Source: Schmidtea polychroa (taxonomy: Eukaryota). From it: a stretch of DNA of 64,000 nt. The position numbers were made by a program, and so were the translations under genes. The stretch lies in assembly GCA_044892525.1 (NCBI GenBank), contig CM097886.1, positions 66,340,001-66,404,000 on the forward strand, in the 5' to 3' direction. Shown here piece after piece: positions 1 through 57,218 of the stretch; positions within the stretch are counted from its first letter, which is position 1, and every line of letters starts with the position of its first letter. The notes beneath the pieces are model-generated. The model searched no databases. It was given only the letters and a program-made list of their open reading frames with translations, and was not told the DNA's origin.

Positions 1-60
1 AGTCGATCAATTACACATGTATGCGTCAGAGAAGACAGAGATATATGCATAGTAACAGAT

Positions 61-747
61 ATGACACAAGACCACAAATTCTTCTGGGGAGAGGTCAAAC
101 CAAATACCCCTACTGTGGTATGCGCAGGAACCCAAGGGATAGTAGCATGTAAAGGAACAAGAACTGCACCAAGAAAAGACAAACCAAGGAGTATGGCAAT
201 TAAACAAGGTCCACTGATGGAGATAACAACCAAGAAGCCAAATAAATCAGTTAGTACAAAAACAACAACAGAGCAAAACCAAACTGAAGTAACAACAACG
301 GCAACAGGGATCAATGAAGTGATTAAGGATGAAAGACGAGAAGTGCATGTAACTATCAACCTCAACAAGAAAGGAGAAGAGGTAATTACAGTCAAAAACC
401 AAGAAGGAGAACCAATCATAAGGATATGCGTAATGGCTAAGACGGGAATAATCGACTGTACAACAACACCGATAGACAAAGGTGTAGACGTCAAAATAGA
501 GACAAGGAAACGAAAAGAGCGATATCAGGTATGTATCCTTAAGAAAGGAAGAGGAACCAGCGTATGTCAACCAATAACTCGACAAAAATCCCAATTAATA
601 AACATACCATGGATACCCCGAGATCGAGAAGGGGGAGAGAAACGAGAAAATCACAGTCACCTAACAGAGAAGGAGAAGGAACGACTACATCAAGCTTTTA
701 AGAAAATCAAAGCACCAGAAACGAATACCACAGGTAGTATAATGTAG
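61..747 (+). CDS. Hypothetical 228-aa cargo protein (beta-rich middle, basic patches)
   Basis: Open 228-codon ORF with the same A-rich codon style as its neighbours. AG lies 2 nt before the ATG. No recognisable domain. Confidence 0.55.
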   Translation: MTQDHKFFWGEVKPNTPTVVCAGTQGIVACKGTRTAPRKDKPRSMAIKQGPLMEITTKKPNKSVSTKTTTEQNQTEVTTTATGINEVIKDERREVHVTINLNKKGEEVITVKNQEGEPIIRICVMAKTGIIDCTTTPIDKGVDVKIETRKRKERYQVCILKKGRGTSVCQPITRQKSQLINIPWIPRDREGGEKRENHSHLTEKEKERLHQAFKKIKAPETNTTGSIM

Positions 748-962
748 TATAATGTAGGTAGTATAATGTAGGTAGTATAATCGAACTAGCGGAGGAAGGA
801 CTAACAATAGAAATACGATAGACGGATAGAGGGAAATTGTAGATATTTTGTAAAAACGGTGTAAAGTAATTGTAAAGTTATTGTATAAAGTAAAATAACT
901 CACCAAAACCATAAAAATTAGAAAAAGAAAAAATGCAAAAGAAATGACGAAATTTATTATAG

Positions 963-2141
963 ATGACTAATCGAGAGAGACCGAATATCCGAAAGAAAAC
1001 GATCACAATGAGAGAGGGAGAGGACGATACGCCATCTAGAAAGAGAGTGAGAGATGCGGAAGTTAGCGAAACAAAACCAAGTGGTTTCGCGTATTATCGA
1101 AGGATGGGAAATGATTATAGTTTAGTACATGGAAATTTGAAGCAGGGGAGTAATGAGCAATTCAAATGTGAGAACCAGAGATACCTGTCATTTGAACACC
1201 AGACCATTTTCACCAAGGAACAGAGCCGAGCGCTAGCACTCAACGGATTTTTCTTCTCAGGAAAACCAGAAATACCCGATCAAGTAACGTGTCACTTCTG
1301 TAATGGGAAATTAGCAGAATGGAAAAAAGGAGAACACCCAAAGAAGGAACATCGTAAACGAATCCCAACTTGTCCATTCATAATGGGATTTGATGTACAC
1401 AACAAACCGGAAATAAAATACGAAGCCTTGGAGAAATTGAAAACCGAAGATGAAAAAGGAGGGAAAATGACCATCGCGATAACCAGAATCATTGATGAAT
1501 ATGTCCCAACTTGTGAAGGTGAATTTCTCACGCAAATAGCAGATAATAGAATGAGAACGTTCGGAGACGATACGAGAGGACCTGAACTAGCAATAAGAGG
1601 ATTCTATCTAACAGAAAAGCAAATACTCAAGTGTGAAAGATGCGAAAGCCAACAGAGATTACCGGAGGAAGGCATACCAGAAATTAGACATCAAGCATGG
1701 TGCCTATATCACAACGAACAAGAAACCGAATATCCAGAAGTGTTAGTAACAGAAGAAGAGGTTGACGAAGTTGTAGACAAACCCAACATGTGCAGAGCGT
1801 TGAAAGCAGCCGGAATAGGCACGACAAGAGCAAAGAAAATGGTTAACGAGAGACTACAGAAAAACGTACATATACCAACAACAACGTACGATATGATCAG
1901 AGCAATTACTCAATACAGAGAAAAACCTGAAACAAAAATAAAAGAAGAATCAATGGTCAAAGCAGCTATCTTACGAGATATCAAATGTACTATGTGTTGG
2001 GAGATGAGTGTAGAAGTTATTCATATGCCATGCGGACATTTGATCGCATGTGCCACGTGTAGTAGAAAAGTAAAGGAATGTCCTATGTGTAGACAGAGGA
2101 TTGCGCAGCGAATCAAAGGATTTCGCTACGCCGATCAATAA
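963..2141 (+). CDS. Inhibitor-of-apoptosis (IAP/BIRC-like) protein: BIR, degenerate BIR, UBA-like segment, C-terminal RING
   Basis: BIR1 has canonical C-x2-C-x16-H-x6-C (CHFC..H..C, with ALALNGFFF). BIR2 is degenerate (ELAIRGFY..CERC..H..C). RING is C3HC4 (CTMC..MPCGHLIACATC..CPMCR). ALKAAGIGTTRAKKMV resembles the IAP UBA domain. Intronless. Confidence 0.92.
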   Translation: MTNRERPNIRKKTITMREGEDDTPSRKRVRDAEVSETKPSGFAYYRRMGNDYSLVHGNLKQGSNEQFKCENQRYLSFEHQTIFTKEQSRALALNGFFFSGKPEIPDQVTCHFCNGKLAEWKKGEHPKKEHRKRIPTCPFIMGFDVHNKPEIKYEALEKLKTEDEKGGKMTIAITRIIDEYVPTCEGEFLTQIADNRMRTFGDDTRGPELAIRGFYLTEKQILKCERCESQQRLPEEGIPEIRHQAWCLYHNEQETEYPEVLVTEEEVDEVVDKPNMCRALKAAGIGTTRAKKMVNERLQKNVHIPTTTYDMIRAITQYREKPETKIKEESMVKAAILRDIKCTMCWEMSVEVIHMPCGHLIACATCSRKVKECPMCRQRIAQRIKGFRYADQ

Positions 2142-2223
2142 CAAAAATTAAAATACCGTGTATAAAGTGTAGATAATAAATGTATGAAATAACAGTGGTA
2201 GTAATGGTGTAATTATTTAGACA

Positions 2224-3822
2224 ATGAATAAAGAATCACAAACCTATGTGGAAACCGAGATGCAACAACTCGAACAGTACAAATCCATCATACAAGCCTA
2301 CGAAGCAGAAAGAGTAAAGAGAGAAATAGAAATGTACAAAACCATGTATGAGAAAAAGCAACAAGAGTTAGAAGTGGAGAAGGCGGAAGCACTAGCAACA
2401 AAAGAGAAGTGGATGAAACAGGTAGAGGAATTAACCGAGGATGTGAGAAATACCTCAACATACCAAGAATTGGAGGAAGAGCTCTCAAATTTGCGAACTC
2501 AGCGGATTATGGAGATAGTTGGGTTATGCGGAGAGATAATAATGCAAAAGGCACAAATTAGAGAAGCAAAGGAGCAATACGAAGAGGAACAGCGTAAAAC
2601 GGAACGAATATAACTACAAGCGCAACAATGGAAACGAAAATACGAAACACTCCAAACGAGGCAGAATGATAGCCACGAACATCAAATACGAAGCTACAAG
2701 GCAGAACTAGAAGAAGCAAAGGACAAATGCGCAATGATGAAAGAAAAATGGGAAAGATGCAAAAAGACCCTAAACGAAGTCAGAGGGCAGGGGAGGAGAA
2801 CACCGCACAAAGAACCCATCGTTAAAGATAACGTATTAGAGCGAATTAACACACAAATAAAAGCCCAAGCTCAGAAATGGAAGTATAAATATCTAGGAAG
2901 TCAAACTCAAGTGCTCTATTGGAAAATCAGTAGTAAGGAACTACTGAGATTACGAAAAGCAGACCAAGAATTTTACGAAACAAGGGCTACACAGCGAGAA
3001 GAAGAAGAAGTAGAGTGGAGAAAACGACATCAGAGATTGGAGAAAACCGAAAAGTGTCTCAAGCATCAAGTCCGAAAATGGAAAAAGAATTGGAAAGAAA
3101 CCAAAGAAGAATTAAGACAGCTGCCCATGAGACTGATGGAGAGAGACGACTTCAAAATGTGGGAAATGATAGAAAACCAAAAGGAGGAGATTAGCCGATT
3201 GAGTAGAGAACATAGAATCAAAACGCGGACCAGCGACGGTAGACAGAGAATCATAAAGAAACAGACCGGAGAGATAAGAAGGTATGAATACCAGGAAAAG
3301 AGATGGGAACAACAATTGACAGACCAAGATCGACAGATCCGACAATTACAAACAGAAGTGGAGGAAGCCAATCAAGAGATGAACGGATATAAAGGTATGT
3401 ACACCCAAAGGGATGTGAATTGGAAGCACCAGATTGAACTTAACGCGAAATGTAGAGAGGAGTGTGATAAGGCAATTCAACAAGCCAATCAGGAAACTGA
3501 AATAATAAAACGATGCTTCGAAGAAAATGAAGCAAATCTGAGGGCAGAAATCGAGAAACTAAAAGCGCTTGAAAGAACCCAATGATTGGAAGAGGAATTA
3601 GACGAAATGATAGAAAACGAAAGTAGATTAACGTTTTTGTTGGATGAAGAAATAAACATCTCAACGGAATTGCGGGAGGAAGTAGATCGGTTAAGGAGAC
3701 AACCACCAATATTATTAATGCCGCTCTACCCGTTCCCGTTGCAAGTGCCACAGCCTGCCGAAGTCACAACAGATGAAGGCTTCGAAGAAAATAACGAACC
3801 AAATAACGCAACGTGTATTTAG
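2224..3822 (+). pseudogene. Long coiled-coil cargo ORF interrupted by two in-frame stops (TAA 2611-2613, TGA 3583-3585)
   Basis: Track ORFs 2224-2613, 2734-3585 and 3586-3822 are all in one frame, and E/K/Q/R-rich heptad-like sequence continues across both stops. Confidence 0.7.
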
Positions 3823-3942
3823 TCGAGGAGAGATGTTGCCTGTAAATAAGAATGAAAAAAAAAACCAAATAAAAATGACAAAACCAAAAGATTCAAATAA
3901 AAAGAAGACGAAAGGAAATATGATGTGTATATTTTTGTAGAT

Positions 3943-4710
3943 ATGAATTATTTAAAAGAAAGAGAATCAACGAGTAACGAAAGAAAGTCAAATGACCAAC
4001 CTGAACAAAGCCAGAATACGATACCAATCAAACAAGAACCAATGAAATATGATAGTAATAAATGGAGAGTCAGCAAGAAGTTGTTCAAAACAGAAATTGC
4101 AAATAAAAATGTAGAGATTACGAGATTGAGACAGCATATTGTTCAATCAAGGCGATTAATAAACATTGTCAAGCAAGAAATTTTGAGGGAAATAAATGAA
4201 TCGAAACGAAAAGAGACGGAAAATAAAAACCTGAGACAGGAGATAGTGGAATTGAGAGCTCAGGCAGTAATCGAAGATTATTGGAAATCAGAAACAAGTA
4301 AGTTGAAGAAGATTGTAAATATCGATCAAGTTTATATCGAACAGTTAGAAGCACAATACGCTTATGCAAAAACGAGAATGCGAGAAAGTAAACGAGTCGA
4401 GAAGAGAAATGCAAAACTCAAGGAAGAGATCAAGGAACAAAGAGAGGAAACAGAAAAACAATGGAAGTTGAAAGAAAATTATCGGAGAATTTTATATCAA
4501 AAGCGACGAAGCATGCAAACACTGCAGACGACAATGACCATCAAACAAAGAAAATGGAAAAGTAAAGAGAGGTAATTACAAGAAATACCAGAATTAAAGA
4601 AACAGTTGGTGGCAACACAACTCGAAGTAATAAGAATGAACGAGTTGAGTAAAAGACGAGCACCTGAACCTCCCATAAAATTAAGGGATGAGGTCGGTGA
4701 CTCCCAATAA
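3943..4710 (+). pseudogene. Second coiled-coil cargo ORF with one in-frame TAA (4573-4575)
   Basis: ATG 3943 follows ATTTTTGTAG. The frame continues past 4575 (LQEIPELKKQLVATQLEV..) to TAA 4708-4710. Confidence 0.6.
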
Positions 4711-4786
4711 ATGAGACAAACTAACCGTGTAAATAAATTGTAAATAAAGCCAAGTAATTATTATTAAAGTATATGTATATGTAAAG

Positions 4787-5844
4787 ATGAGAAGCCTAAT
4801 TGTGGTGATGATTATAATGGCATTGCCAAGAACCCTGCAAGCAGAAGAATCAATGATCAGATGCCAAAAAGAATACCCATACCGAAGAGAAGATAGCACA
4901 TGCAGTAGCTTTAAATCAATCTGCGAAAAACCCAATGAGGAATGCGAACAAATCAAGTTGCAATGTTCGCAATGTCCACCAACCACTGAAAGTTCAACGG
5001 AAGTGCAAATAGCTCAGACAATAAAAACAATCTTGGAGCAAGAAATGAAAGTTATCAGAACCCAGATAGCAGCATTGGCTAAACAATGTCAAAGCCAGAA
5101 ATCAAAGAGAGAATCCCAAACAGATCCAGCCGCAACCCAAATGAGAATGATGATAAAAATTAAAAACGAAATGACAAAAACCTTGAAAGAAATGACAAAA
5201 GAAATCCTCACTACCATAAATAAAAATCCGATGAACTCCGAAAAGATAGAGGAAATAAAACAACAATTAATGACAGCCGCCAATGGACGTGCAAGTAATT
5301 GCAGAATGGTAGTGAAATCGCTAGAGGAAATGAAAGGAAAAAAAAACCCAGCATTAAAAATGAGGTGACGAAAACCTTAAAAGAAATGACAAGAGAAATC
5401 CTAACTATCATAAATAAAAACCCAATGAACTCCGAGAAGATGATTAAAACCTTAGAGGAAATAAAGAAAGTTGTCACCTCGGAAGAAAACAAATTCAACA
5501 AACCCGAAAAATCAGAAGTTGCGGATACAACCCAATTGGGAGAAATGATGAACAAACCCAAAGTATTAGAACCCAGAGAGTCCGAACCCCTCACAATATT
5601 GATCCTATTAGCGGCAAGCCTAATGATAAACATCACCATACTGAGTCTAATTGCACTCAAACCCATTCCCAGTAAAGAAAGAAACAGAACCCTGAAACTA
5701 AAAGAACAATCACGAAGTATTCGTATCCCAATGGAAGAACAGCTAGTCCAAACAACAAACCAACCAAGATACTTCAAATCTTCTCCAAACATTGAAACCA
5801 GAGCCGTCATCGAGACGAGATCCCGAACAACAGAATTCTACTAA
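4787..5844 (+). CDS. Secreted or type-I membrane protein encoded in two frames joined by a -1 shift at the A9 run 5338-5346
   Basis: N-terminal hydrophobic signal peptide, Cys cluster, KSKR dibasic site, duplicated helical repeat, then in the -1 frame a TM-like segment LTILILLAASLMINITILSLIAL and a short tail. Confidence 0.6.
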
Positions 5845-5917
5845 TATGACATTACGACAGTATAAACATTTTGTGACATTATAAAACATTATCAAACGAT
5901 TGCGAGTCTAAGACTAA

Positions 5918-5998
5918 GCAGGTGAGCTCTATTGCTAAAACTACTCCCCATTGTATTTTCTCTTCGGGTTCTAGACGGCCGATAGAAGGTCTTACGTC
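5918..5998 (-). other. Conserved family block (TGACGTAAG.CCTTCTATCGGC..ATGGGGAGTAGT..GCTCACCTGC), copy 1
   Basis: The reverse complement matches 57553-57637 in four co-linear blocks and 12733-12795 in two blocks. Confidence 0.8.
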
Positions 5999-6860
5999 AT
6001 TGATCATTTTCTATTTTTACTTTTCTATCTCATTCGGTTATGGTCTTCATTTCTAGTTGTTTTCTATTGTTTCCTTTCAAAATTTTGTGCAGGGATGCGC
6101 CCTCATTTTTCTATTAATAAAGGTTGCTAGGTATTTCTTTTGATATTTATGAATATTTAAACTATCTCGCAAAAAAAATTTGAGCATGGATCGGCCCTTA
6201 TTTTCCAGCTAATAATTATTGTTCTACACTTCCTACAATATCTAAATTATCCTTTGAAAAATTTGAGCAGGGATTGGCCCTTATTTCCAAGTTAATCCGC
6301 GCTTCCCATAATATTTAAATTGTACTTCAAAAAAATTTGAGCAGGGATCTGCCTGTATTCTCAGTCCTAACCTATGTTTGGCCAAAGTACTTCCAGCGAT
6401 AGGACCCGTGAGGAAGCCCCCACATTTCGGCCCAATCCAGCTGCGTGATTGAAGAACCTCATGTCCACCGGCTGAGCTCCCGAAGGCACCTCATGCCATG
6501 ACATGAAGTTCCTCAACTCCACGTTACTATCGTTCACAATCAACAAATAATATAATTGAACTCAATAAAAACTATTATTTCAAACTTGAAACTAAATGAA
6601 ATTAAACAATAATGAAAAAAAAACTAAACTAAATTGAATATAAAATTTATTTAACTTTAAACATTACCTAAAATTTCATATTAAAATAAAATTACCAGTC
6701 CAATCCACAAGGGCATAAAATCGAAAATTGAGAGCATATGTTCGTTACCTGACAAACGATTTGTTGTGTAAAACTGAAAACTAATTTAACAAGTTGAACA
6801 ACTGAAATTTCAATCCGTATTTATACTGATTGAATTGTACGCCTACGCATTCTCTGCTAC

Positions 6861-6881
6861 TATATCCAATTAGAATGCGAG
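6861..6881 (-). promoter_or_regulatory. Promoter-like motif CTCGCA..AATTGGATATA of module A
   Basis: Same motif as 54488-54516 (+) and 30302-30327 (+). About 0.7 kb inside the shared terminus. Confidence 0.4.
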
Positions 6882-7558
6882 GCAATTCTGGTTAATTTTT
6901 GCATGCATGCATGCATGTGTGCAATTATTGTTTTTTTTAATTTAATTAATTTAGTTAATCAAAATTCTAATTTTTATTAACTTTTAAGATTTATTTTTAT
7001 AAATTCTATAATCAAAATAGTTTTTTGCTAATTTTAATTTAGTTTTACAAGTTTTGTAATTTAAATAAGTTCAGTTAATTTTACTTTAGTTTCATTAATT
7101 TAAACAATTTGGTTTTATAAGTTGTATAATTTAAATAATTTTGTTGGTTTTATTTTTAGTTTTAGTTTTATAAATTTTATGGTTTATCTAATTTTACTAC
7201 TTTCTTTCTACATTTTTTATTATTTCTCCAGTTTACTAGATAATTTATTTTAAATTTTAAATTTATTTATTTAGAAATTTCCCATATTATTAATTAATTC
7301 ATTACCCATTATTTTATTTATTATTATTTTAATTTTTAGTTGTTAGATATTCCGAATGCGATGTTTCTCCTAATTGTGTTAGTGATTGCGACCTTTATTT
7401 TCGTTCCTTTATTTTATCACCCGGGTCTTATTTATCATCAATGTGTTATGTACTTTAATTTGTATTGATTGGTGTTTTGATTTAACTTGGTGCGATTTTT
7501 ATGTTATGTATTTTTGATTCATTAAAACAAGCTCTCGATTCTCGGTTCTAGCCCAACA

Positions 7559-9113
7559 TAACCATCGACCACCAATTAATAAAATAATCCGAACTATTTA
7601 ACATATATCCTTAATTTAGGTTACCTTCAAAATTATAGTTGAAAAATTTGTCATCAAAGACCCCCAATAAACCATATCGTCATCAACTACCACCTAAATA
7701 TGCTAAATTGGCTTATCAGAATATATATTTAACTTATTTTATATTCAAAAATATAAATTGTAAATTTTCATGAATGACCCCCTCAACTTCATATAGTCAT
7801 TAATCACTACCTAAATATATTAAATTGGCTTATCAGAATATATATTCAACTTATTTTATATTTAAAAATGTAAATTGAAAATTTTTATGAATGACCCCCT
7901 TACAAACCATATAATCATCAACTACCACCTAAATATACTAAATTAGCTTATCTTAATATATATTTAACTTATATTATATTTAAAACTATAAATTGTACAT
8001 TTTCATAAATGACCCCCCTCAGACCATATAGTCATTAAGGATTACCCAAAAGTACTAATTTAATTTGTTTTCAGATATGTTCAACTTATATTACCTTTAA
8101 AAATATAACTTGTATTTTTATTTAACCGACCCCCCTCAAATCATGTAGCCATTAACTATTACGTAGGTATACTGAATTATATTATATTCATAGACAGTTA
8201 AATTATATTTCATTTAAAAATATAAATTCATAAATTTTTGTAAATTCCCCCTCCCCCCATATGTGGTAATCTTATACAAATATAAATTTATATTNNNNNN
8301 NNNNNNNNNNNNNNNNNNNNNNNNNNNNNNNNNNNNNNNNNNNNNNNNNNNNNNNNNNNNNNNNNNNNNNNNNNNNNNNNNNNNNNNNNNNNNNNNNNNN
8401 NNNNNNNNNNNNNNNNNNNNNNNNNNNNNNNNNNNNNNNNNNNNNNNNNNNNNNNNNNNNNNTATCACTCTCATTATTATTATTACTATTATCATTATTA
8501 TTATTATTATATTATTAAAATAATTATCTTTATTTCATGAAAATAAAATTATAAAACAAATTATTGATTTTGGAATTCCCCTATCTCTAAATTTAGTTTC
8601 AATGGCCCTATCTTCCAATAAAATTACGGAAAATCACTAATATCTATTTTTAGTAACATCCCCCCTTGAAACGACATCAACTATTATTAATTTAAATTAT
8701 ATCCATATATGTATATGTGTGTGGGTGTATATGTATATATATGTGGATGTGTGTATGTATATATAGATTTAGAAAATAACAAATACCATAATCTTCCCCC
8801 TCAAGACCCCTTTAAAGTAATAAAAATAGAATAATTTATAAAAATTATGGACAAAATTATGGACAAAATTATGTTCAAACTAAATCAAAAGACAAAACTC
8901 AATTGTAAACTAAATTTATTAATTCCAATCACCAAATTTATTTACATCATTGTCTCTTTGAATCATATTCATACCAAAAAGTCCTTCGAGCTCAGTTGAT
9001 GGACCATCCCGATGAAATACATTTCCTGGGGTTGGAAAATGGAAAACTTATATTAAAATATCTTTCAGAATTTCTTTTAGATTTCCACAATTAAATAATT
9101 CCAAATTATTTCT
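7559..9113 (+). repeat. Left arm of a ~1.5 kb inverted repeat, with five ~117-bp tandem subunits and an (ATT)n tract (gap)
   Basis: Near-identical reverse complement of 14876-16387. GACCCCC recurs at 7659, 7776, 7893, 8011 and 8128. Confidence 0.9.
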
Positions 9114-10420
9114 ATATAAACTACTATAAACTATAACCTATGTCAATTATAAAATATAAATCATGAATAGTGCTATATAAATAGTGAATGTATCCAATCC
9201 TTAAATACTTGTATATAAATTTATAAATTGTAAATAGTCATGTATAAATTATAAATGTATCGGGGTTATAAAATATAAGTTATAAATAATTATATAAAAA
9301 AAATTTTTTTTGATTATAAAATATAAAGTATAGATGGTTGCACCTAACTTATACATGTATCTTGATGCTCGAAAATAGAACCCATAATTAGCTATAGATA
9401 AATTCTGTCTACGAAATAGTAATTCTAAATAATTATATAAAATTTTTGATTACAAAATATAAAGTATAAATGATTGAATATAAATTATACATATATCTTG
9501 ATTTTATAAAAATAAACTATATATAAATTACAAAATTATATATAAATTTTGATCATAAAATATAAAGTATAAAATGGTTATATATAGAGGTTGAGTATAA
9601 AATATAAATAGTTATATACATATGTAACTTGTAAATATAGAACTAAATCATAACTGGCTATATATCAATTTTGATCGAAAACTATGAAGTATAAACAGCT
9701 ATATATAAATTGAGTATAGATCTTAATTAGTAAAATGCGAATTAGAGATAACCATTTGTAAAGTATAGAAACATAATTCATGAACCATACCTAAAGTATA
9801 AACTAGAATTCATATTAACTACCCAGGTTCCGAACGTAACCTGCCCAATTTGTAAAGTCTAATATCAGTCACCTCCAGAGATATGATCCTATGCCAAGGA
9901 TATGAAATATGAATTTTCGTTAAATTATAAATTCTAAATGCATACAAATTAAACTAAGAAATATAATTCGTATTAGTATTATCATTATTGTTATTATTAT
10001 TACTGTCAGTATTATCACTATTATTACCCTTNNNNNNNNNNNNNNNNNNNNNNNNNNNNNNNNNNNNNNNNNNNNNNNNNNNNNNNNNNNNNNNNNNNNN
10101 NNNNNNNNNNNNNNNNNNNNNNNNNNNNNNNNNNNNNNNNNNNNNNNNNNNNNNNNNNNNNNNNNNNNNNNNNNNNNNNNNNNNNNNNNNNNNNNNNNNN
10201 NNNNNNNNNNNNNNNNNNNNNNNNNNNNNNNNNNNNNNNNNNNNNNNNNNNNNNNNNNNNNNNNNAAAATCCAAATTTGATTGAATAATCGATTTAGGAT
10301 TTCCCCTCACAACTAAATTTAGAACCTACCCTTTTGCCCCAATAAGAATGATCATAATTCCTAAAGTCTATTTTTAGTAACACCCCCCCCTCGGAGAAAA
10401 TGCTAGGACTATTAATTAAA
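9114..10420 (+). repeat. Older diverged copy of the same repeat family (AT-rich tandem units, ATT tract, core)
   Basis: TTTTGATyAyAAAATATAAAGTATA-like units at 9.3-9.7 kb. The 10290-10420 segment resembles 8570-8700. Confidence 0.5.
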
Positions 10421-11417
10421 TAAGAACATGGGTGGATACATCTATATAGATATGTGTGTAAACGTGGGTAACTATACGTATATAATAAGTTAATTTAACC
10501 CAAGCTTGTCAGTGACGGATACATCTTAGTTAACTTAGCGGCCCCAGAAATTAAAAGCCATGTAAAGCCTACATTGTTGACTTAAACTAATTCATCGAGA
10601 ACACTAGGAATGCATTGAGACAGCCGATACCAACTATTGAACTCCACGGAATCAACTGCATGAATTATCGATAAATGACAAAAGTACATCTTACTTAAAA
10701 TTAAAAGCGTTATCAAAAGGGAATACTAAATTAAATTATTCAACAACATTTCTAACATAATTAGATACAAATCAAACTAAAGATACCAACACAGAGTCAT
10801 AAAAAATTCCTTAAAGGCTTTGAACAATCGGCCATTCCGTCCGAGTGAAAGATTTCCACCAAATATATCTAAAATCGAAAAGTTATTATTGATAAATAAA
10901 GTACTTACAAGTTAATCAAAGGGGATTACACCACTCATGACGAGCACAACCGAGGGATAAGTAAGTAAAATGAGGAGCTAGGCTCGTCAATGATACTTAT
11001 CGCCCCAGTGTACCCGAATTTAGTGGTAAATTACTAACAGGATCCGATTTCCTAAATTCGAAGAAAAAGTAAAGTATTAAATTTTGAATTACCAGCTAGT
11101 GGTAAACAAGATTTTGAAAATTTAAATGATTGAATTAAACAAAGTTAATTAAATTTAGGATATATTTAGTTAAAGTATGAGATTTACAAAAACTTTACTC
11201 AGGACTATTGAATTTTTTTTAAAAATAATTTCGGAAATCCAGGTTGTAATTGCAGTCGTTTTTTATTACTTCATTAAATTTCTTTTTAACTAAGATACAA
11301 CTATCAAAAATTTTAACTGTGAACGCAAGATTTTAATTATGAACTCCGTTGTCCGAGTCCCTTAAAGACTCATATCAGTCTGTGCCAAATGACCTAAATT
11401 AGATTTGCATTATAGAA

Positions 11418-11783
11418 ATGTCTCACTCCGGCGACTCAAACGGTGATGAAGCCTACAATCAAATGATCACGCGGCTCCGGACCCGGTACATCTGGTATCG
11501 GATACACGATTGGAACCGGGGGTTGGACCTCGATAATTACGGTCCGGTCATCCGAAGTGGCCCAGAGCCCGATGCCCCGGCGTGGGTGAAAATAGAGCCC
11601 ACCAACAACGTGTTATGGGAAGCCCGCGATCGAGCGGCCGACGAAGTAGTAGAGGCCCAGAAGCGGCTGAGGAGATTCGAGCTCCAGCTCAAAGCCGAAA
11701 TAATGGGAGTAACTCCTGAAGAGCTGGAGGAGACAGATGCCCCTCCACGAAAACGGGGAAGGCCCCGTAAGAACCCGGCCTAA
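11418..11783 (+). CDS. 121-aa protein with a C-terminal AT-hook (RKRGRPRK)
   Basis: GC-rich ORF in an AT-rich background, TTATAG 2 nt before the ATG, canonical RGRP AT-hook core flanked by basic residues. Confidence 0.65.
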   Translation: MSHSGDSNGDEAYNQMITRLRTRYIWYRIHDWNRGLDLDNYGPVIRSGPEPDAPAWVKIEPTNNVLWEARDRAADEVVEAQKRLRRFELQLKAEIMGVTPEELEETDAPPRKRGRPRKNPA

Positions 11784-12104
11784 CTTATCGATAGTAACAA
11801 TTCGGGCGAACTATTTAATCTAATTAGTGATACTGTGTGGTGTTTGACTTTTTGTTTTTGTAACAACTATGACGAACTGTAGCAATTTTTATTATTAAAA
11901 CTTTTACATCATAGTTGGTCGTGCGTATTCATAATATAATAAATCATCTTTGTCATTATATAGAAGTCTTATTGCGTATGGGGTGTCCCCAGGGACGGGA
12001 TGACCCACCCCCTTACTCTTCAGTTACTACTTTTATGAAAATAATCGAATTACCTTTATGCACATGGAAACGAGCGACGAAATTTTCATTATTGTTTTTC
12101 TTCA

Positions 12105-12578
12105 GTGTACAAGCTACTTGAAAATCTACGAAAAGACCGTGAACAGGCCCAGCAACAATCCGAGGACCTTCGAAGTCGAGTCGAGAAGCTCAAAATCAAG
12201 TGCCGAGAACTCGAAGGCACTTGGTTCAGTCCGGCTGAGATGAAGAAACGGACAACACACATCTCACAACTCCAGATCCAGGCGGGGCAAGATCAACTCG
12301 AAATCCGAGCGTTGAAGCTACAAGTACGCTCGCTCGAGAGCAAACTGAATGAAAAATTCATCCAGGACGCCCTCCAAGAGCAGATTCGTCCCCTTCCGGT
12401 GGAGCTAGCCAAGATATACCCACCTGCCCAGGCAAGCAAGCCGAAACGTAAGCGGCTAGGGCGGAATACCCGGGAAAAATTGAAGAGGGTCTGGCTGGCC
12501 GAGCAAGAAAAATCGAAAGAGCCTGCAGTCACTTCACGATCCCGAGGAACGTTTGAGAGTGTAATCCCTCCTGAGTAA
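12105..12578 (+). CDS. Coiled-coil/basic protein of an unrecognised family (LEGTWFSPAEMK); 5' end probably spliced
   Basis: Motif shared with 56491-57218. A strong acceptor TTTTTCTTCAG ends at 12105. Confidence 0.7.
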   Translation: MYKLLENLRKDREQAQQQSEDLRSRVEKLKIKCRELEGTWFSPAEMKKRTTHISQLQIQAGQDQLEIRALKLQVRSLESKLNEKFIQDALQEQIRPLPVELAKIYPPAQASKPKRKRLGRNTREKLKRVWLAEQEKSKEPAVTSRSRGTFESVIPPE

Positions 12579-12704
12579 AACATACCTTGTAATATAGTAA
12601 TGATTAAATAAATGATTCTTGTTGTCTAATGCATATGTGATCAAACTTTGTGATGGTCCAGAACCAGACGGTCGGCAGAAAGGCGTTTGGGGAAACAATC
12701 TCGA

Positions 12705-13325
12705 TAAGGGACCGAAATAAATCGGACACGTGCCTTCTATCGGCGTCCGTGAACCCATGGAGTACTCGACAATTATAGTGCCTTGAGGCGCTCACTTTTT
12801 GCGAGTACTCAACCCCTTGGTACAGTACCAACGTTGATTGCTCAACGGGTACCAAGAGGAAAACAATGTTGTATTCTGGGTTACGCTGGTAACAGCACCT
12901 AAACATTCAACCACCTGTAACCCACCAATATTGACATATCCATGTACTAAGTTCAAGTGTTTGGGAAAACAATTTGCTCGTTCTTGAATGCATATCACTT
13001 TATATCAGCTTTTACTCTCTCCTTTATATCTATTCTCGGGTTCTTTCACCAATTAAATTTTCAAATCCCGGCTGAGCCCCCAAATTTGTATGGTGGGTTA
13101 CTGATGATCAAATATTTTGCTCTTTAGTGCTGTTACCAGCGTAACCCAAGATACAACATTGTTTACCGCTTGATACCCGTTGAATGATCAACGTTGGTTC
13201 TGTATCAAGAGGGTGAGTGCTCGCAAAAAGTGAGCGCACTACTTGCACTGTAATTGTCGAGCACTCTACTGGGTTCACGGACTATCGTTTGAAGATATAT
13301 GTCCGATTTACGCAGGTCCCTTATT
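12705..13325. repeat. Imperfect inverted repeat, ~220-bp arms around a ~160-bp spacer
   Basis: Perfect complementary blocks 12877-12898/13127-13148 (22 bp) and 12788-12805/13220-13237 (18 bp), with co-linear partial matches out to ~12705/13325. Confidence 0.9.
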
Positions 13326-14126
13326 ATAATTACTTTCTCAACTATGCCTATACAAACTTTCTATCCTCAAACGATCATAAGTCATCAGGAATCATACATT
13401 AATCTATTAAAACCTGTTCATACAATACCACATCTAAAATGTTTGAATATAAATTAAGTGAAACATAGCCATAGTTTATTAAACATACCTTAAGAAAATT
13501 TTGAGGATAATGAATTTAATTAGAACACAATCAAAAAAAAAACAACTTATATATTGGTGAACATACAAATAAGGGTCAGAAATTTCATCAACCACAACAA
13601 CCAAATGTAATAACTTTACAAGAACCATGATTGTTTATGACCGCGTATTATTTGACTAAGCGTATTTCGCGGTGACTATGATTGTCCTAGTTGACCTACA
13701 ATGACACTCACCTTTGTTGAGCCCGGGTAGTTATAGAGATATGGTTAGATCAACAATCAAAATCTCACAATACATTTTTGTTAATATTATATTTTTAATT
13801 CAAGTTAAATAAATTCAAAATACATCAATAACTGTTACAAAACAATTCCCTATATAATTTTAAGAGATACTTCTAGAAAATTCAAATTGACTCAAACTTT
13901 ATTTTTTAAAAATTTGTTTTCTATTAATAATAGATTTTTTCTAGAATTTTAAGAAAATTTTAATTCAAAATTTATAATAATATTAAATTAATTTTACAAT
14001 ACTCGTTGCTTACATTTTAAACAAAACTTATACGTCAGTTTGAAGTATTTTAAACTTGTTTTAACTAATTATTTTTTAACAAACCATTTTTTTTTATTAT
14101 ATATTATTAATTAGTGATATTTTGCA

Positions 14127-21427: not shown

Positions 21428-22924
21428 TCAAAGGCTGATCGTTTTGAAGACGTTCATACCATCCAATGCAGTACTCAACAGCAACCCTGGGATTTGTGGA
21501 TGCCAATGGAGCTCTTTGATTTCCTTCTGTCCCATGTGATTAAACAGCAGATGAACGGGGAATTCCTCTGAGCCCTGCAACTCCCCGGCATCTTGCTCCA
21601 TACTGATATCCCACAGTGTCAATTGATCATCGTCAGAACTGCACGCAAACACATATTGGGATTGAGGGCACCATTCGATAGATGTGATTGGATAATCCCT
21701 GTGATACTAATAACCAACCGTAAACCCGGTATAATTTACAACAAATCAACTCACGTCATACAAATGTGTATAAGCTGGCTGTGTTGTGCTCTTGAACATT
21801 CGTAAATCCCACACTTTCACAATGCCATCATCTCCTCCCGATACGAGGGAGAAAGCACAATTCTTTGACCAAGATATTACATTGACATCCTTGGTATGAG
21901 CGTCTGCCATCGTTACGTGGTGCTTCATGTCTCGGGCGTCCCAAACAAGAATGCTTCTGTCACTGGAACAACTGATAAGAATATTATCTTGATTCGGAGA
22001 CCACTGAATGTCTTCTACTGAAGAAGTGTGTTTGGATAGCGGTTGATTGATAACCTCAAATCCGTGCTCCTTTGCCTGGGTTACATAGATTTTACCATCA
22101 TTATCGCCTGTAGCTAATTGTCCAATTTTACAATTAGACCAATCCATTGCATATCCTTCTGTTGAATGATTTCGAATGGTATAAATAGGCTTGATTAGTT
22201 CATTTCGACCCATATAATCTGCCATGTATGCACTATCATTAACAGCCCATAATTGATTTTTTAAATCCCATATGTGAACCTAAACAATATTGAAACAAAC
22301 TTCATAAATGTATTGCTCATTACCTGCCCAAGATCTGACCATGAAGCTGCTACAGGATTATTGATCTGTTGGGTTCTGACCCGATTAACTCCACCATTGT
22401 GCAAGATATTAACGTGTGTTAATTACCTTTCATCATCTAAAAATTCATCTTCACTTTCTTCTTCTGATTCTTCATCACTTTCGGTATTTTCCTAATTGAA
22501 TGAACAGTGAAAATTATTATGTTAAATTTCATATTAACTTTTTGTTTTAATTTTTGCAAATTACTCATTTTCATAACAGTCAAAATATTGCTATGGCCTG
22601 CTGCATCTTCGCGGCCAGATATTGAATAAACTGTGTATGGGAATTTTTCAGATCTTTCTTCTCCGGTACCCAAGTTATCATTTATAATATCGAAACTTAA
22701 GCACGAGTGATCAAGTTTTAGCCTATGATGCAAAACATATGCAGATTCATCCATTTCTAACTCAGTATCATCATCGATTTTGTGTGTTTTGGGATTAAAA
22801 ACTTCTGATTCTATTTTAAGTATTTAGTAATTAAAGTAATTTACAAATTTCTACCTTGTTCGTTATCATCTAGTTCCATTTGTTCATTTTCACTTTCAAT
22901 CATTGCAACATTATCATCACTCAT
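21428..22924 (-). CDS. GRWD1: Glutamate-rich WD40 protein GRWD1/Rrb1, 5 exons (22855-22924, 22539-22810, 22324-22491, 21755-22279, 21428-21706), one in-frame TAA at 22423-22425
   Basis: [17 protein letters not shown], acidic tract, [51 protein letters not shown]. Introns of 44, 47, 44 and 48 bp. 438 codons in total. Confidence 0.93.
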
Positions 22925-26592: not shown

Positions 26593-28300
26593 ATGAAAGT
26601 TAAAGATGCAAAAATATCTACAGATGTGGATTCAAGTAAATTTGATTATTATTATTTATTTAAAAATATATTTTTTAAAACATATTTATATATTTATAGG
26701 TAATTCAAGCAAAATTAAAATGGTAAAAAATTTAAACAGTAAACTAGATTGTAAACCTAACAAGAAACTAAATAGTTTTAAAAAGAAAAAACTCAAAAAT
26801 ATTCAAATTGAACCTCAAAATCAAATATTGATAAAGGATTTAGAAAATTTATTGTCTAAAAAAAAAGAATGTACTGAGACGGATATCGAGAAATTATTCT
26901 CAATAATGTATTGCCATTCTGAAGTTGCATCAATTTATTGTTTTCAAATTGAAAAAGGAATATTGGAATTTACTGATAGTTCATATTCTCTTAAATGTAT
27001 TCAACTATCTGCATTATGCATGAGCAGATTTGTTAATATAAAAAAATCAAATGGAGCCCAATTACTGCAAAGAGTTCTTAAAACACTGTTGAATATTGGT
27101 AAAGAATATTTCGATTTCTTTGATATTTCATCAAATCTAATTGAACTAAACTATGATTTTACAGTACCTCTTATAAATTTCCCTGAATTGGTTATCAATA
27201 ATGACACAATCCCGATTTTAATTAAACGAATTAATTTTCTTTTCTACGTGATTTATTTTATATTTGATGTTAAAAATGAATTATCTCTACCTAATATTTT
27301 CGAAGATTTAATTAAAATGTTTATTGCATTTCTATCTATCACACCCGATGAGCTGTTATGCAAGAAAATGCAAGAATCTTCAATGATTTTGTCAATTCCA
27401 TATACTGTCAATTCTAATTTATGGAAAATACTTGATTGTATATTTTTATCATTGGGTTTTAATAATTTTGAATATGTTCCAAAAATGTGCGGGATTATTA
27501 AATTATGCCTTTTGGATGATTTAATCGGAAATGATTTATCATATCATTTGTATATTTCCAATATGTTAGTGTTTTTATCCCATATAATCGACAAAGGAGG
27601 TGTTTTAAATCTGTCATCAGTGGCCCCCTTGATTATGTTGATTGTTCAAAGGATTGATGCGATTGTCAGTTTAGCTTGTACAAATAACCAACAAAATATT
27701 CTCACTTTATATTTACAAGTTTTGAATAAGTTCCTATCACATTATCGTGATAAAAACGTTGGAAAATGTATAGTGAATTTGGAAGGATCACTCATTCATA
27801 TTAAAAACAATCTCATATATTTAAATAGTAAATCAATCTATTCAAACAACGAATTCAAGGTCGAATATAGGCTGTTCTTAAATTCTTGTAAACTGTGCAT
27901 TCACAATAATTTCCATGAGCCTGAGATTTTATTTGATTATTTCAAAACCGAGGATTCAAATTATCAGAATAAATTAGAGGGTGAAATTTTGATGGAAACA
28001 AACAATGAATCACACGTTAATGATATTGAGCTAGAGGATCATTTAGAAATGGAAATTGAAAAGATTACTGATCAATATATCGAGGAATGTGAAGGCAATA
28101 TAGAGTTTCCTCTTGTTGAAGAAACCCCATCTTCTAATTCTATTCCAGTTCAAGAAACTGATGACATCTGTGAGATCATAAATCCGATGGCAGTTAACGA
28201 GGAGAAATCTGATTTACAAACCGATTCGAGTCAATTACAACTGAACGATTCGAAAGTTATGGATTTAGAAGAGATGTTGAAATCTTTTGTTCCAATTTAA
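26593..28300 (+). CDS. ~547-aa helical protein with acidic C-terminus, possibly PELP1/Rix1-like; exons 26593-26635 and 26700-28300
   Basis: 534-codon open exon. A 64-bp GT-AG intron joins MKVKDAKISTDVDS in frame. Leu-rich helical body, acidic tail ending DLEEMLKSFVPI. The family assignment is by resemblance only. Confidence 0.75.
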
Positions 28301-56490: not shown

Positions 56491-57218
56491 ATGTCCAAGG
56501 TTCCAATCACCACAGTCATACGCCCATGTTTCGCTTGCGCGGACAAAAACCAGTTGATAAAGACTCTTCAGACTCAAAATGGCCTCCTGAAAAAGAAATC
56601 GGACTATTTAGAAGGGACGTATTTTTCTCCAGCCCAAATGAAGGAGGTAAGAACAAGGCTCACCCGAGTGAAGAAGTGTCGGGATGATGTATTGGAGGAG
56701 AACCGCGCTTTACGTACCTTAATCAAAGAGCAGTCCGAAGCGCTGCACAAGGTGTCTGTCCAAGCTTCAGTCACCAGAAAAATAGTAGATATCCCACTCG
56801 CAGAAGAGGACAATCTATTCCCGTCCGATCACTTCTCGGGCATCTCGTTGACAAAATCATTTAATCCGGCCAACTTAAGCCATGCGAGTCTCCCTCAGCC
56901 GACGATCCCATCCGAAGTTATCTGTACCGGCACAAGTCGCGCGGTCCCAAGGATAGTAGATTTAACAATCCCGATCACTCTCCCGGATGTAAAGAAAGCC
57001 AAGAAACGCCGGCAGCCATCTAGGGCCGAGCGTACTAAAAGGAGAAGGCCCTCCAAGCCGAAAGGGAAGCGGCTCTGATAGCCTCTGTTCAACTACCAGC
57101 TTCAATACCTTCAGCGGAACCCGCCCCGCAGTCTATTCCTATTTTCCGGGTAGTCCCGCCCGCCGATTTTTTCGATCTCGATGAGATCTTTGCTGGAACT
57201 TCTCCGAATACATTATAA
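56491..57218 (+). CDS. Coiled-coil/basic protein of the unrecognised family (LEGTYFSPAQMK), with a 1-nt frameshift near 57037-57040
   Basis: ATG 56491 follows TTGTAG. Adding one A continues the frame as KEKALQAERE..DFFDLDEIF to TAA 57216-57218 and restores alignment with 12105-12578. Confidence 0.7.

Follow-up and report, generated by a model that had tools for sequence, protein, structure and literature searches.

Selected acceptor-like sites before the accessory genes of a Burro-like Gypsy element in Schmidtea polychroa: probable separate spliced mRNAs and their candidate leaders

Introduction

How are the accessory genes of a giant retroelement expressed, when up to ten proteins would have to come from one promoter? 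A stretch of 64,000 nucleotides of Schmidtea polychroa (assembly GCA_044892525.1, contig CM097886.1, positions 66,340,001 to 66,404,000 of the forward strand; hereafter the window) raises this question for the Burro-type elements. Its first part (1-5900) is strongly A-rich and belongs to the 3' cargo of a 37-kb Burro-like Gypsy element with long terminal repeats (LTRs). An earlier note on positions 61 to 5,844 had described five open reading frames (ORFs) as a trans-spliced operon. In this work, genomic copies of the element were compared, and the acceptor-like AG before each gene and the TGTA/AATAAA words of the spacers were found to be conserved beyond their surroundings. Each accessory gene is probably expressed as a separate spliced mRNA. 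Two candidate leaders are weighed below, the element's own LTR leader and the host spliced leader (SL).

Results

The cassette in the window

The letters had been read correctly in the earlier note: the AG dinucleotides lie at 57, 961, 2219, 3939 and 4785, the spacers measure 215, 82, 120 and 76 nt, TGTA occurs at 2159, 3841, 4728 and 4739, AATAAA at 2175, 3868, 4732 and 4743, and CCGTGTA at 2156 and 4725. Four of the five ORF starts placed after an AG are real, and the first is spurious. The supposed cargo ORF at 61-747 was rejected, as its frame is continuous with the polyprotein upstream and its TAG (745-747) lies at a private deletion junction. Likewise, the 215-nt first spacer is correct in its letters, but the true spacer between ORF B and the IAP-like gene begins only at 822. 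The features of the cassette in the window are as follows.

1..744 (+): C-terminal part of the gag-env-pol polyprotein frame, open from locus L024 into the window; ATG 61 is an internal Met
744..777 (+): junction of a private deletion of ~2.45 kb, with short-repeat filler (window 743 = L062:1223, window 778 = L062:3680)
778..821 (+): last codons and stop of ORF B (TRAF-like), by alignment to L062
822..962 (+): true B-IAP spacer, with several TGTA words and AGTAAA/TATAAA, without AATAAA; acceptor-like AG 961-962
963..2141 (+): intact IAP-like gene, BIR and RING, 392 aa (Pfam BIR E=9.5e-15, RING E=1.7e-11), with third-position variation in excess
2142..2223 (+): IAP-CC1 spacer, TGTA 2159/2168/2181, AATAAA 2175, acceptor-like AG 2219-2220, 3 nt before ATG
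2224..3822 (+): coiled-coil gene CC1 (532 aa when intact), broken here by stops at 2611 and 3583
3823..3942 (+): CC1-CC2 spacer, TGTAAATA 3841, AATAAA 3868 and 3896, A-run, acceptor-like AG 3939-3940, 2 nt before ATG
3943..4710 (+): coiled-coil gene CC2 (255 aa when intact), premature stop here at 4573
4711..4786 (+): CC2-last gene spacer, TGTAAATAAA at 4728 and 4739, acceptor-like AAG ending at 4786, ATG adjoining
4787..5844 (+): last cassette gene (328 aa when intact), signal-peptide-like start, Cys-rich part, hydrophobic segment; in this copy frameshifted and carrying an internal duplication

The ~2.45-kb deletion takes the end of pol, ORF A (151 aa) and most of ORF B (474 aa); its junction occurs in no other fetched locus, and intact copies extend the polyprotein by ~127 codons beyond the break. 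The intact gene order is pol - A - B(TRAF) - IAP - CC1 - CC2 - last gene - LTR, and all six cassette ORFs vary mostly at third codon positions. The gag, MATH, RT, RNase H and integrase frames lie upstream of the window on the same + strand, so that the cassette is sense to gag-pol and to the genomic RNA, and the antisense orientation suggested in the earlier note is ruled out. As a lead only, the last cassette gene (window 4787-5844; L062:7714-8700) has a weak feature resemblance to TNF-receptor-like proteins (grindelwald, TACI/BCMA; score 0.82). A cargo with TNF-receptor-like, TRAF, IAP and RING genes could be a mimic of a TNF-receptor signalling module.

Acceptor-like AGs before each gene

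The conservation sample comprised 40 copies, 39 fetched and the window itself. Wherever both ends of a spacer were located, an AG stood within its last 5 nt: in 30/30, 34/34, 38/38, 40/40, 37/37 and 38/38 copies for the spacers before A, B, IAP, CC1, CC2 and the last gene, respectively, one of the 34 scored for B being a small-deletion copy. The copies were picked on the IAP-CC1 stretch, and its AG is also kept in 29/29 copies picked on BIR. The distance from AG to ATG is characteristic of each gene: 2 nt for A (3 in a few copies), 1 for B, 0 for IAP, 3 for CC1, 2 for CC2 and 0 for both the last gene and the RING gene before gag. Three of these genes (A, B and RING), which share the layout, lay outside the view of the earlier note. 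Moreover, the final 12 nt of the B-IAP spacer are identical in all 38 located copies, and the CC2-last gene spacer holds a 27-nt invariant block.

Taken alone, an AG 0-3 nt ahead of an ATG is a frequent feature of this strand, found at 34 of 84 internal in-frame ATGs (40%). An AG preceded by at least four T in 10 nt, a threshold set after the sites had been inspected, is found at 4 of these 84 and at 6/6 cassette starts. ATG 61, an internal Met with a poorly kept AG (10/32 aligned copies), thus serves as a built-in negative control. The motif UUNYAG of parasitic flatworms is matched by only three of the seven acceptors.

By comparing the variable positions in the five spacers that had not been used for picking the 39 copies, it was found that 1/40 acceptor positions and 3/86 motif (TGTA/AATAAA) positions vary, against 157/473 other spacer positions and 572/2138 third codon positions. 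The tests gave P values from 1e-4 to 3e-10, which are guides only because the copies are related. In the 29 BIR-picked copies the variable positions were 0/41 in the motifs, 0/16 in the acceptors and 31/165 in the other spacer sequence (acceptor vs other spacer, P=0.08). The acceptor bases and the TGTA/AATAAA bases are under purifying selection. The AGs therefore behave like selected splice acceptors, as the earlier note had supposed, and the conservation of spacer motifs across copies that it had named as a check was found.

Spacer motifs and candidate 3' ends

The number of AATAAA words does not exceed that in dinucleotide shuffles (8 vs 6.0, P=0.24), whereas TGTA does (24 vs 10). The longer word TGTAHATA occurs 9 times vs 0.67 in shuffled sequence, a count reached in 0/2000 shuffles; it occurs once in 7,845 nt of coding sequence and once antisense. 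TGTAHATA matches the PUF (Pumilio-type) element, and TGTAAATA is also readable as a forkhead-type site. A conserved AATAAA is present in five of the six spacers, lies 20-45 nt past the stop in most of them, and in three spacers is only ~35-55 nt before the AG. The B-IAP spacer has none (0/38), and in L062 it holds one-mismatch variants of AATAAA listed for planarians. The earlier note had read UGUA plus AAUAAA as the CFIm/CPSF 3'-end signal; the bases are conserved and the genome (G000) encodes a CFIm25-family gene, but the CFIm part of this reading is doubtful because UGUA is not enriched before planarian poly(A) signals in a 3P-Seq study (PMC5068929). For the two spacers searched, no poly(A) retrocopy ending in the spacer was found in the genome.

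A leader exon in the LTR and an intron-less LTR

About 660 nt into the LTR, an invariant TATA box is followed by a short variable exon and a GTRAG donor, in all 37 TATA matches (some loci overlap). Of 23 distinct sequences, 19 have a length of 3n+1 (34-55 nt) between the exon's ATG and the donor; stops occur in all of the other four and in one of the 19. The ATG of LTR ORF1 lies 2 nt after an AG, in frame with the leader phase, in six of eight subtypes, and 1 nt after it in the other two. LTR ORF2 has a strong YAG|TG acceptor that needs the leader phase, 107 nt before a fixed motif, in 9/12 rows (~7 subtypes), and in three of these nine its own Met is absent there; the remaining three rows belong to a more distant LTR type, one of them with phase 0. 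One LTR donor likely serves these two alternative acceptors. In L162 an AATAAA lies between them.

A pattern search revealed an LTR (L306, G000:C1:74857131-74860223) in which exon 1 is joined exactly to the ORF1 acceptor. Its unspliced twin L023 keeps the 3,273-nt GT-AG intron that L306 has lost; L307 is a near-identical duplicate of L306 on a small contig. L306, which is 95-96% identical to the window's own LTR subtype, represents one event. It shows directly, at the DNA level, that an RNA with the leader cis-spliced onto an AG-NN-ATG acceptor was reverse-transcribed. Fossils joining the leader to gag or to ORF2 were searched for and none was found, the few matches being intron sequence or random deletion; nor was a second copy of exon 1 seen at the intron end in the loci of the studied family. 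The corresponding features in the window, where the LTRs are rearranged, are listed below.

11410..12927 (+): distal LTR part, likely this copy's rearranged 3' LTR, 96% identical to the intron-less L306 from the splice junction onward
11418-11783 (+): LTR ORF1, AG 2 nt before ATG, within this LTR piece
within 11410..12927 (+): LTR ORF2, phase-1 acceptor near 12106, its position mapped through L023

At window 5917-14000, compared with L022/L023, a local segmental duplication and inversion with >99% identity broke both LTRs of this copy. More LTR pieces of the studied or a related family, with the TATA-exon-donor unit and an ORF2-like frame, occur at window 46106 (-) and 56491-57078.

The 5' extension of gag

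The first Met of gag is preceded by a 103-codon frame without an ATG (L170:7283-7591 and 37 other copies). Across these 38 copies, most of its changes are synonymous or conservative, and indels are never shared; upstream of the invariant TAG at its start, shared frameshifts and stops appear. The extension is under purifying selection, and its start has to be supplied by a leader or by a near-cognate codon. The TAG is in frame with the AUG of the host SL in 32/38 copies, and a conserved, T-richer AG 15 codons further on is in frame with the LTR exon phase in 35/38; between the two, 5 of 7 shared changes are at third positions. The gag extension does not decide between the LTR leader and the SL.

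The host spliced leader

The genome was searched with a planarian SL motif taken from the PMC10899757 supplement. SL RNA genes, in which the SL exon is followed by GT, are present in the genome (L117/L118), together with 26 other exact SL-bearing sites. A search for the SL tail followed by ATG gave 25 matches; two of them are SL RNA genes, four had already appeared in the first set, and at least two are due to chance. None of these 26 + 25 matches runs into a cassette gene. One traced parent of an SL target (L232) has TTTTAG directly before its ATG, with the same geometry as the cassette, and in a second (L262) the main ORF begins 13 nt after the AG. Host trans-splicing, which the earlier note had assumed of flatworms in general, is thus well founded here. 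The SL itself ends in AUG, which is in frame in four of the seven internal genes (P about 0.17, not significant); on two others it would stop after one codon overlapping the gene's own AUG, and B alone conflicts, with a 17-codon out-of-frame ORF.

Dozens of dispersed SL-tagged inserts (L080-L130, L231-L266) derive as retrocopies from trans-spliced host mRNAs, with several genes represented at more than one independent site. Many begin with a common 8-nt, TG-initial word before the SL 5' end; this word is unlike the LTR start of the studied element, and the inserts may have been captured by another LTR family.

Several other controls gave no result. The UQCRB locus, examined as a candidate host operon, has no enolase-like frame within 1.5 kb. 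A protein search for SL-extended N-termini gave no CC1 homologue, and for the IAP gene two mollusc IAPs only. No SL- or leader-like loose end was seen among the 24 of 103 rows shown for contigs X1-X4 on L049. None of the nine partly aligned X1 contigs (of 174) on L059 is a leader, and these contigs bridge four spacers. X1 may be DNA (its depth is near copy number and higher in the LTR), and contigs reveal neither absence nor single transcripts. Six X5 rows were shown on L059 (15 unlisted in all), and the poly(T) tails of X5 fall on genomic A-rich stretches, as internal priming would give. None of these contig sets was counted as evidence. In retrocopies and in contigs of uncertain RNA status, no splice junction of a cassette gene to either the SL or the LTR leader was seen.

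Anatomy of the element

The cargo stretch is repetitive in the genome: a 301-nt probe gave 313 candidates, the best 40 of which have 97-100% identity. Fuller natural copies have LTRs of 5.8 kb with TG...CA ends and ~25 kb of internal sequence (L161-L164/L062: LTR 5.8 kb, internal region 25.3 kb), and 4-bp target duplications flank both of the two copies checked at both ends. On the + strand the polyprotein runs gag-MATH-fusion-PR-RT-RH-IN-ankyrin: in natural copies L162, L163 and L167, Pfam identified Gag knuckles (CCHC), MATH, a viral-type fusion glycoprotein, protease (PR), reverse transcriptase (RT), RNase H (RH), integrase (IN) and ankyrin repeats. Among the accessory genes it identified BIR and RING in the IAP gene, TRAF zinc fingers and MATH in ORF B, and a RING gene before gag. 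A Maverick-type origin was rejected. BCL2-like, Ubi/SUMO-like and dUTPase-like segments were not found by Pfam at E<=0.01; in PMC6431247 some had been found, by HHpred only.

No ordinary polypurine tract precedes the 3' LTR (L062:9035-9056, L162:3775-3800), where the sequence shows partial complementarity to the primer-site region that follows the 5' LTR; a purine run resembling such a tract sits instead in the leader before the RING gene. LTR interiors share ~70-85% between subtypes (LTRs in L161-L173, L032, L033) vs 92-98% for the internal region, which suggests LTR swapping. A second abundant Gypsy family (L181-L225) encodes a 3,334-aa polyprotein with an in-frame fusion glycoprotein, ~48% identical in amino acids to that of the studied element and without a DNA match. 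Its three copies read have no cargo cassette, hence no cross-family test was available. The window also holds a host-like WD40-repeat gene in exons at 21746-22754 (-), with a second copy within L021, and a host-like 564-aa frame at 26606-28300 (+).

Discussion

The element's own leader as the proposed main route

We hypothesize that the LTR leader exon would be spliced in cis onto the acceptor just before each accessory ATG, and that each RNA would end in the next spacer. For this, the LTR donor would have to act on internal acceptors at a distance of 20-29 kb, and the spacers would have to be sites of 3'-end formation, each poly(A) site being paired with the last acceptor as in the adenovirus major late unit. 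The genomic RNA, left unspliced, would have to pass over all of these splice and poly(A) signals. That this leader is the main route is put forward tentatively, because its donor has been proven to work and likely supplies two alternative acceptors already. It would be no surprise if the same acceptors also received the SL to some extent.

Several observations weigh against the LTR leader as the main route. Its AUG is in frame with only two of the seven internal accessory genes (A and CC2), and for RING, B and the last gene the result would be an overlapping ORF of ~10-46 codons in the wrong frame, unlike the phase-locked LTR ORFs. The donor would need to skip many acceptors to reach the cassette, whose own acceptors are weak, with 6-8 pyrimidines of 12 vs 8-10 in the LTR ORF2 acceptor, and the spacers are operon-sized (median 76-148 nt). 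In gag, selection seems to begin 15 codons upstream of the phase-1 AG, immediately past the invariant TAG, a site that would suit a leader ending on a codon boundary. Five genome pattern searches gave no fossil junction of the leader to a cassette gene; such fossils would be rare anyway, as cassette mRNAs would be without a primer site.

The host SL as a possible leader

The next candidate is an SL-resolved operon in sense orientation, in which the precursor would be cut at the spacer poly(A) sites, the next gene would be re-capped by the host SL, and the LTR donor would serve the LTR ORFs only. This is close to the proposal of the earlier note, which had not seen the rival LTR leader with its spliced donor; its separate mRNAs remain likely. 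Because of the frame fit, the spacer size and the weaker acceptors, we consider the SL operon a possible reading, held with less conviction than the LTR leader. The machinery is at hand in the SL RNA genes and the dozens of SL-tagged inserts, and the host target with TTTTAG directly before its ATG resembles the cassette starts. Four internal genes fit the SL AUG frame and only B conflicts, although this fit is not significant, and the gag extension opens after a TAG that fits the SL AUG in 32/38 copies. The spacers are below the 300-bp threshold for flatworm operons (PMC12582326), and Cer1 provides the precedent of a Gypsy subgenomic RNA able to take SL1 (PMC3315495).

On the other hand, a working donor lies upstream, and nematode trans-splicing occurs mainly where an acceptor has no upstream donor (cited in PMC8629364); the LTR ORFs may use up this donor, so that the objection only lowers the chance. 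An AATAAA ~35-55 nt before the AG in three spacers is tight for both cutting and branching on one molecule. None of the 26 + 25 SL-bearing matches continues into a cassette gene, and the second traced parent has its ORF 13 nt past the AG, outside the range of 0-3. A two-tier system, in which the LTR leader would be cis-spliced to the LTR genes, the six-gene cassette (TRAF-, IAP- and possibly TNF-receptor-like) would be an SL-resolved operon and the SL AUG would possibly also start Gag, is a possible reading of equal standing with the SL operon.

Internal promoters, long RNAs and chance

Internal promoters, one per spacer, with the TGTA(T)AAA words as TATA-like or factor sites and the AGs incidental or part of an initiator, are improbable. 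TATAAA does lie 60-80 nt before the ATG in some spacers (884, 2161), and TGTAAATA has the forkhead-type reading mentioned above. However, TATAAA is absent from three of the six spacers, the motif is strand-specific (7 sense, 0 antisense) and follows closely on stops, the selection seen on the 8 nt up to and including the AG is left unexplained, and the real LTR promoter looks different. Unlikely, too, are long RNAs that all end in the 3' LTR, in which the acceptors may be used, internal 3' ends are absent and TGTAHATA is a Pumilio-type site. The match to the PUF element is in their favour, as are the lack of AATAAA enrichment and its absence from the B-IAP spacer (0/38). UGUA is also reported absent at planarian poly(A) sites (PMC5068929). 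Against them, AATAAA bases are among the conserved motif positions and lie 20-45 nt past the stop in most spacers, and planarian one-mismatch variants are present in the B-IAP spacer of L062. Chance or composition, to which the bare AG at 40% of internal ATGs and the one spurious site among the five starting ones might point, is barely credible, as seven true starts share the pattern and the conservation P values of 1e-4 to 3e-10 largely refute it.

Comparison with known systems

The closest known elements are Burro/GYPSM1, giant Gypsy-like LTR elements of planarians of >30 kb with ~25 kb of internal sequence (PMC6431247). By the published description, the studied element has the same huge polyprotein (Gag zinc knuckles, MATH, in-frame fusion glycoprotein, PR, RT, RH, IN, ankyrin), the same BIR, RING, MATH/TRAF and coiled-coil cargo, and hundreds of copies. 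Its acceptors, spacer motifs, LTR leader exon and intron-less LTR are not among the features described in PMC6431247, where nothing is said on the expression of the accessory ORFs and 'trans-splic' does not occur. In the literature searched, to which the primary papers (Grohme 2018, Jurka 2007) and most supplements did not belong, no account of accessory-gene expression in Burro-type elements was found. Planarian genomes abound in such elements, and in these animals they are targeted by PIWI (PMC8532177). The element class is already known; new here are a test for selection, an analysis of reading frames, a control with the host SL, the intron-less LTR and the corrections to the earlier note.

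If the proposed expression is true, a mobile element has either an adenovirus-like leader-plus-poly(A) programme or an SL operon, neither of which is usual in LTR retrotransposons. Common-leader splicing is used by the adenovirus major late unit and by the complex retroviruses. They share with the studied element a short 5' leader, one major donor, many weak acceptors just before ATGs and the need for an unspliced genomic RNA. Retroviral subgenomic RNAs have one LTR 3' end in common, whereas the studied element has its own candidate 3' signals for each gene; adenovirus does not need a full-length RNA genome, and the leader of the studied element carries a frame-conserved AUG. With the SL operons of flatworms and nematodes it shares same-strand genes less than 300 bp apart, poly(A)-type words followed by a T-rich AG, and the host SL machinery (PMC12582326, PMC8629364). 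Unlike these, the studied cassette lies inside a retroelement with an upstream cis donor, and only 3/7 of its acceptors match UUNYAG. Cer1, a Gypsy element of C. elegans, makes a spliced subgenomic mRNA with and without SL1 (PMC3315495); it has one spliced mRNA and no multi-gene cassette, unlike the studied element. With either leader, the ~31-kb genomic RNA must escape ~ten acceptors and several poly(A) signals, just as the long RNA of Cer1 skips its splice sites (PMC3315495).

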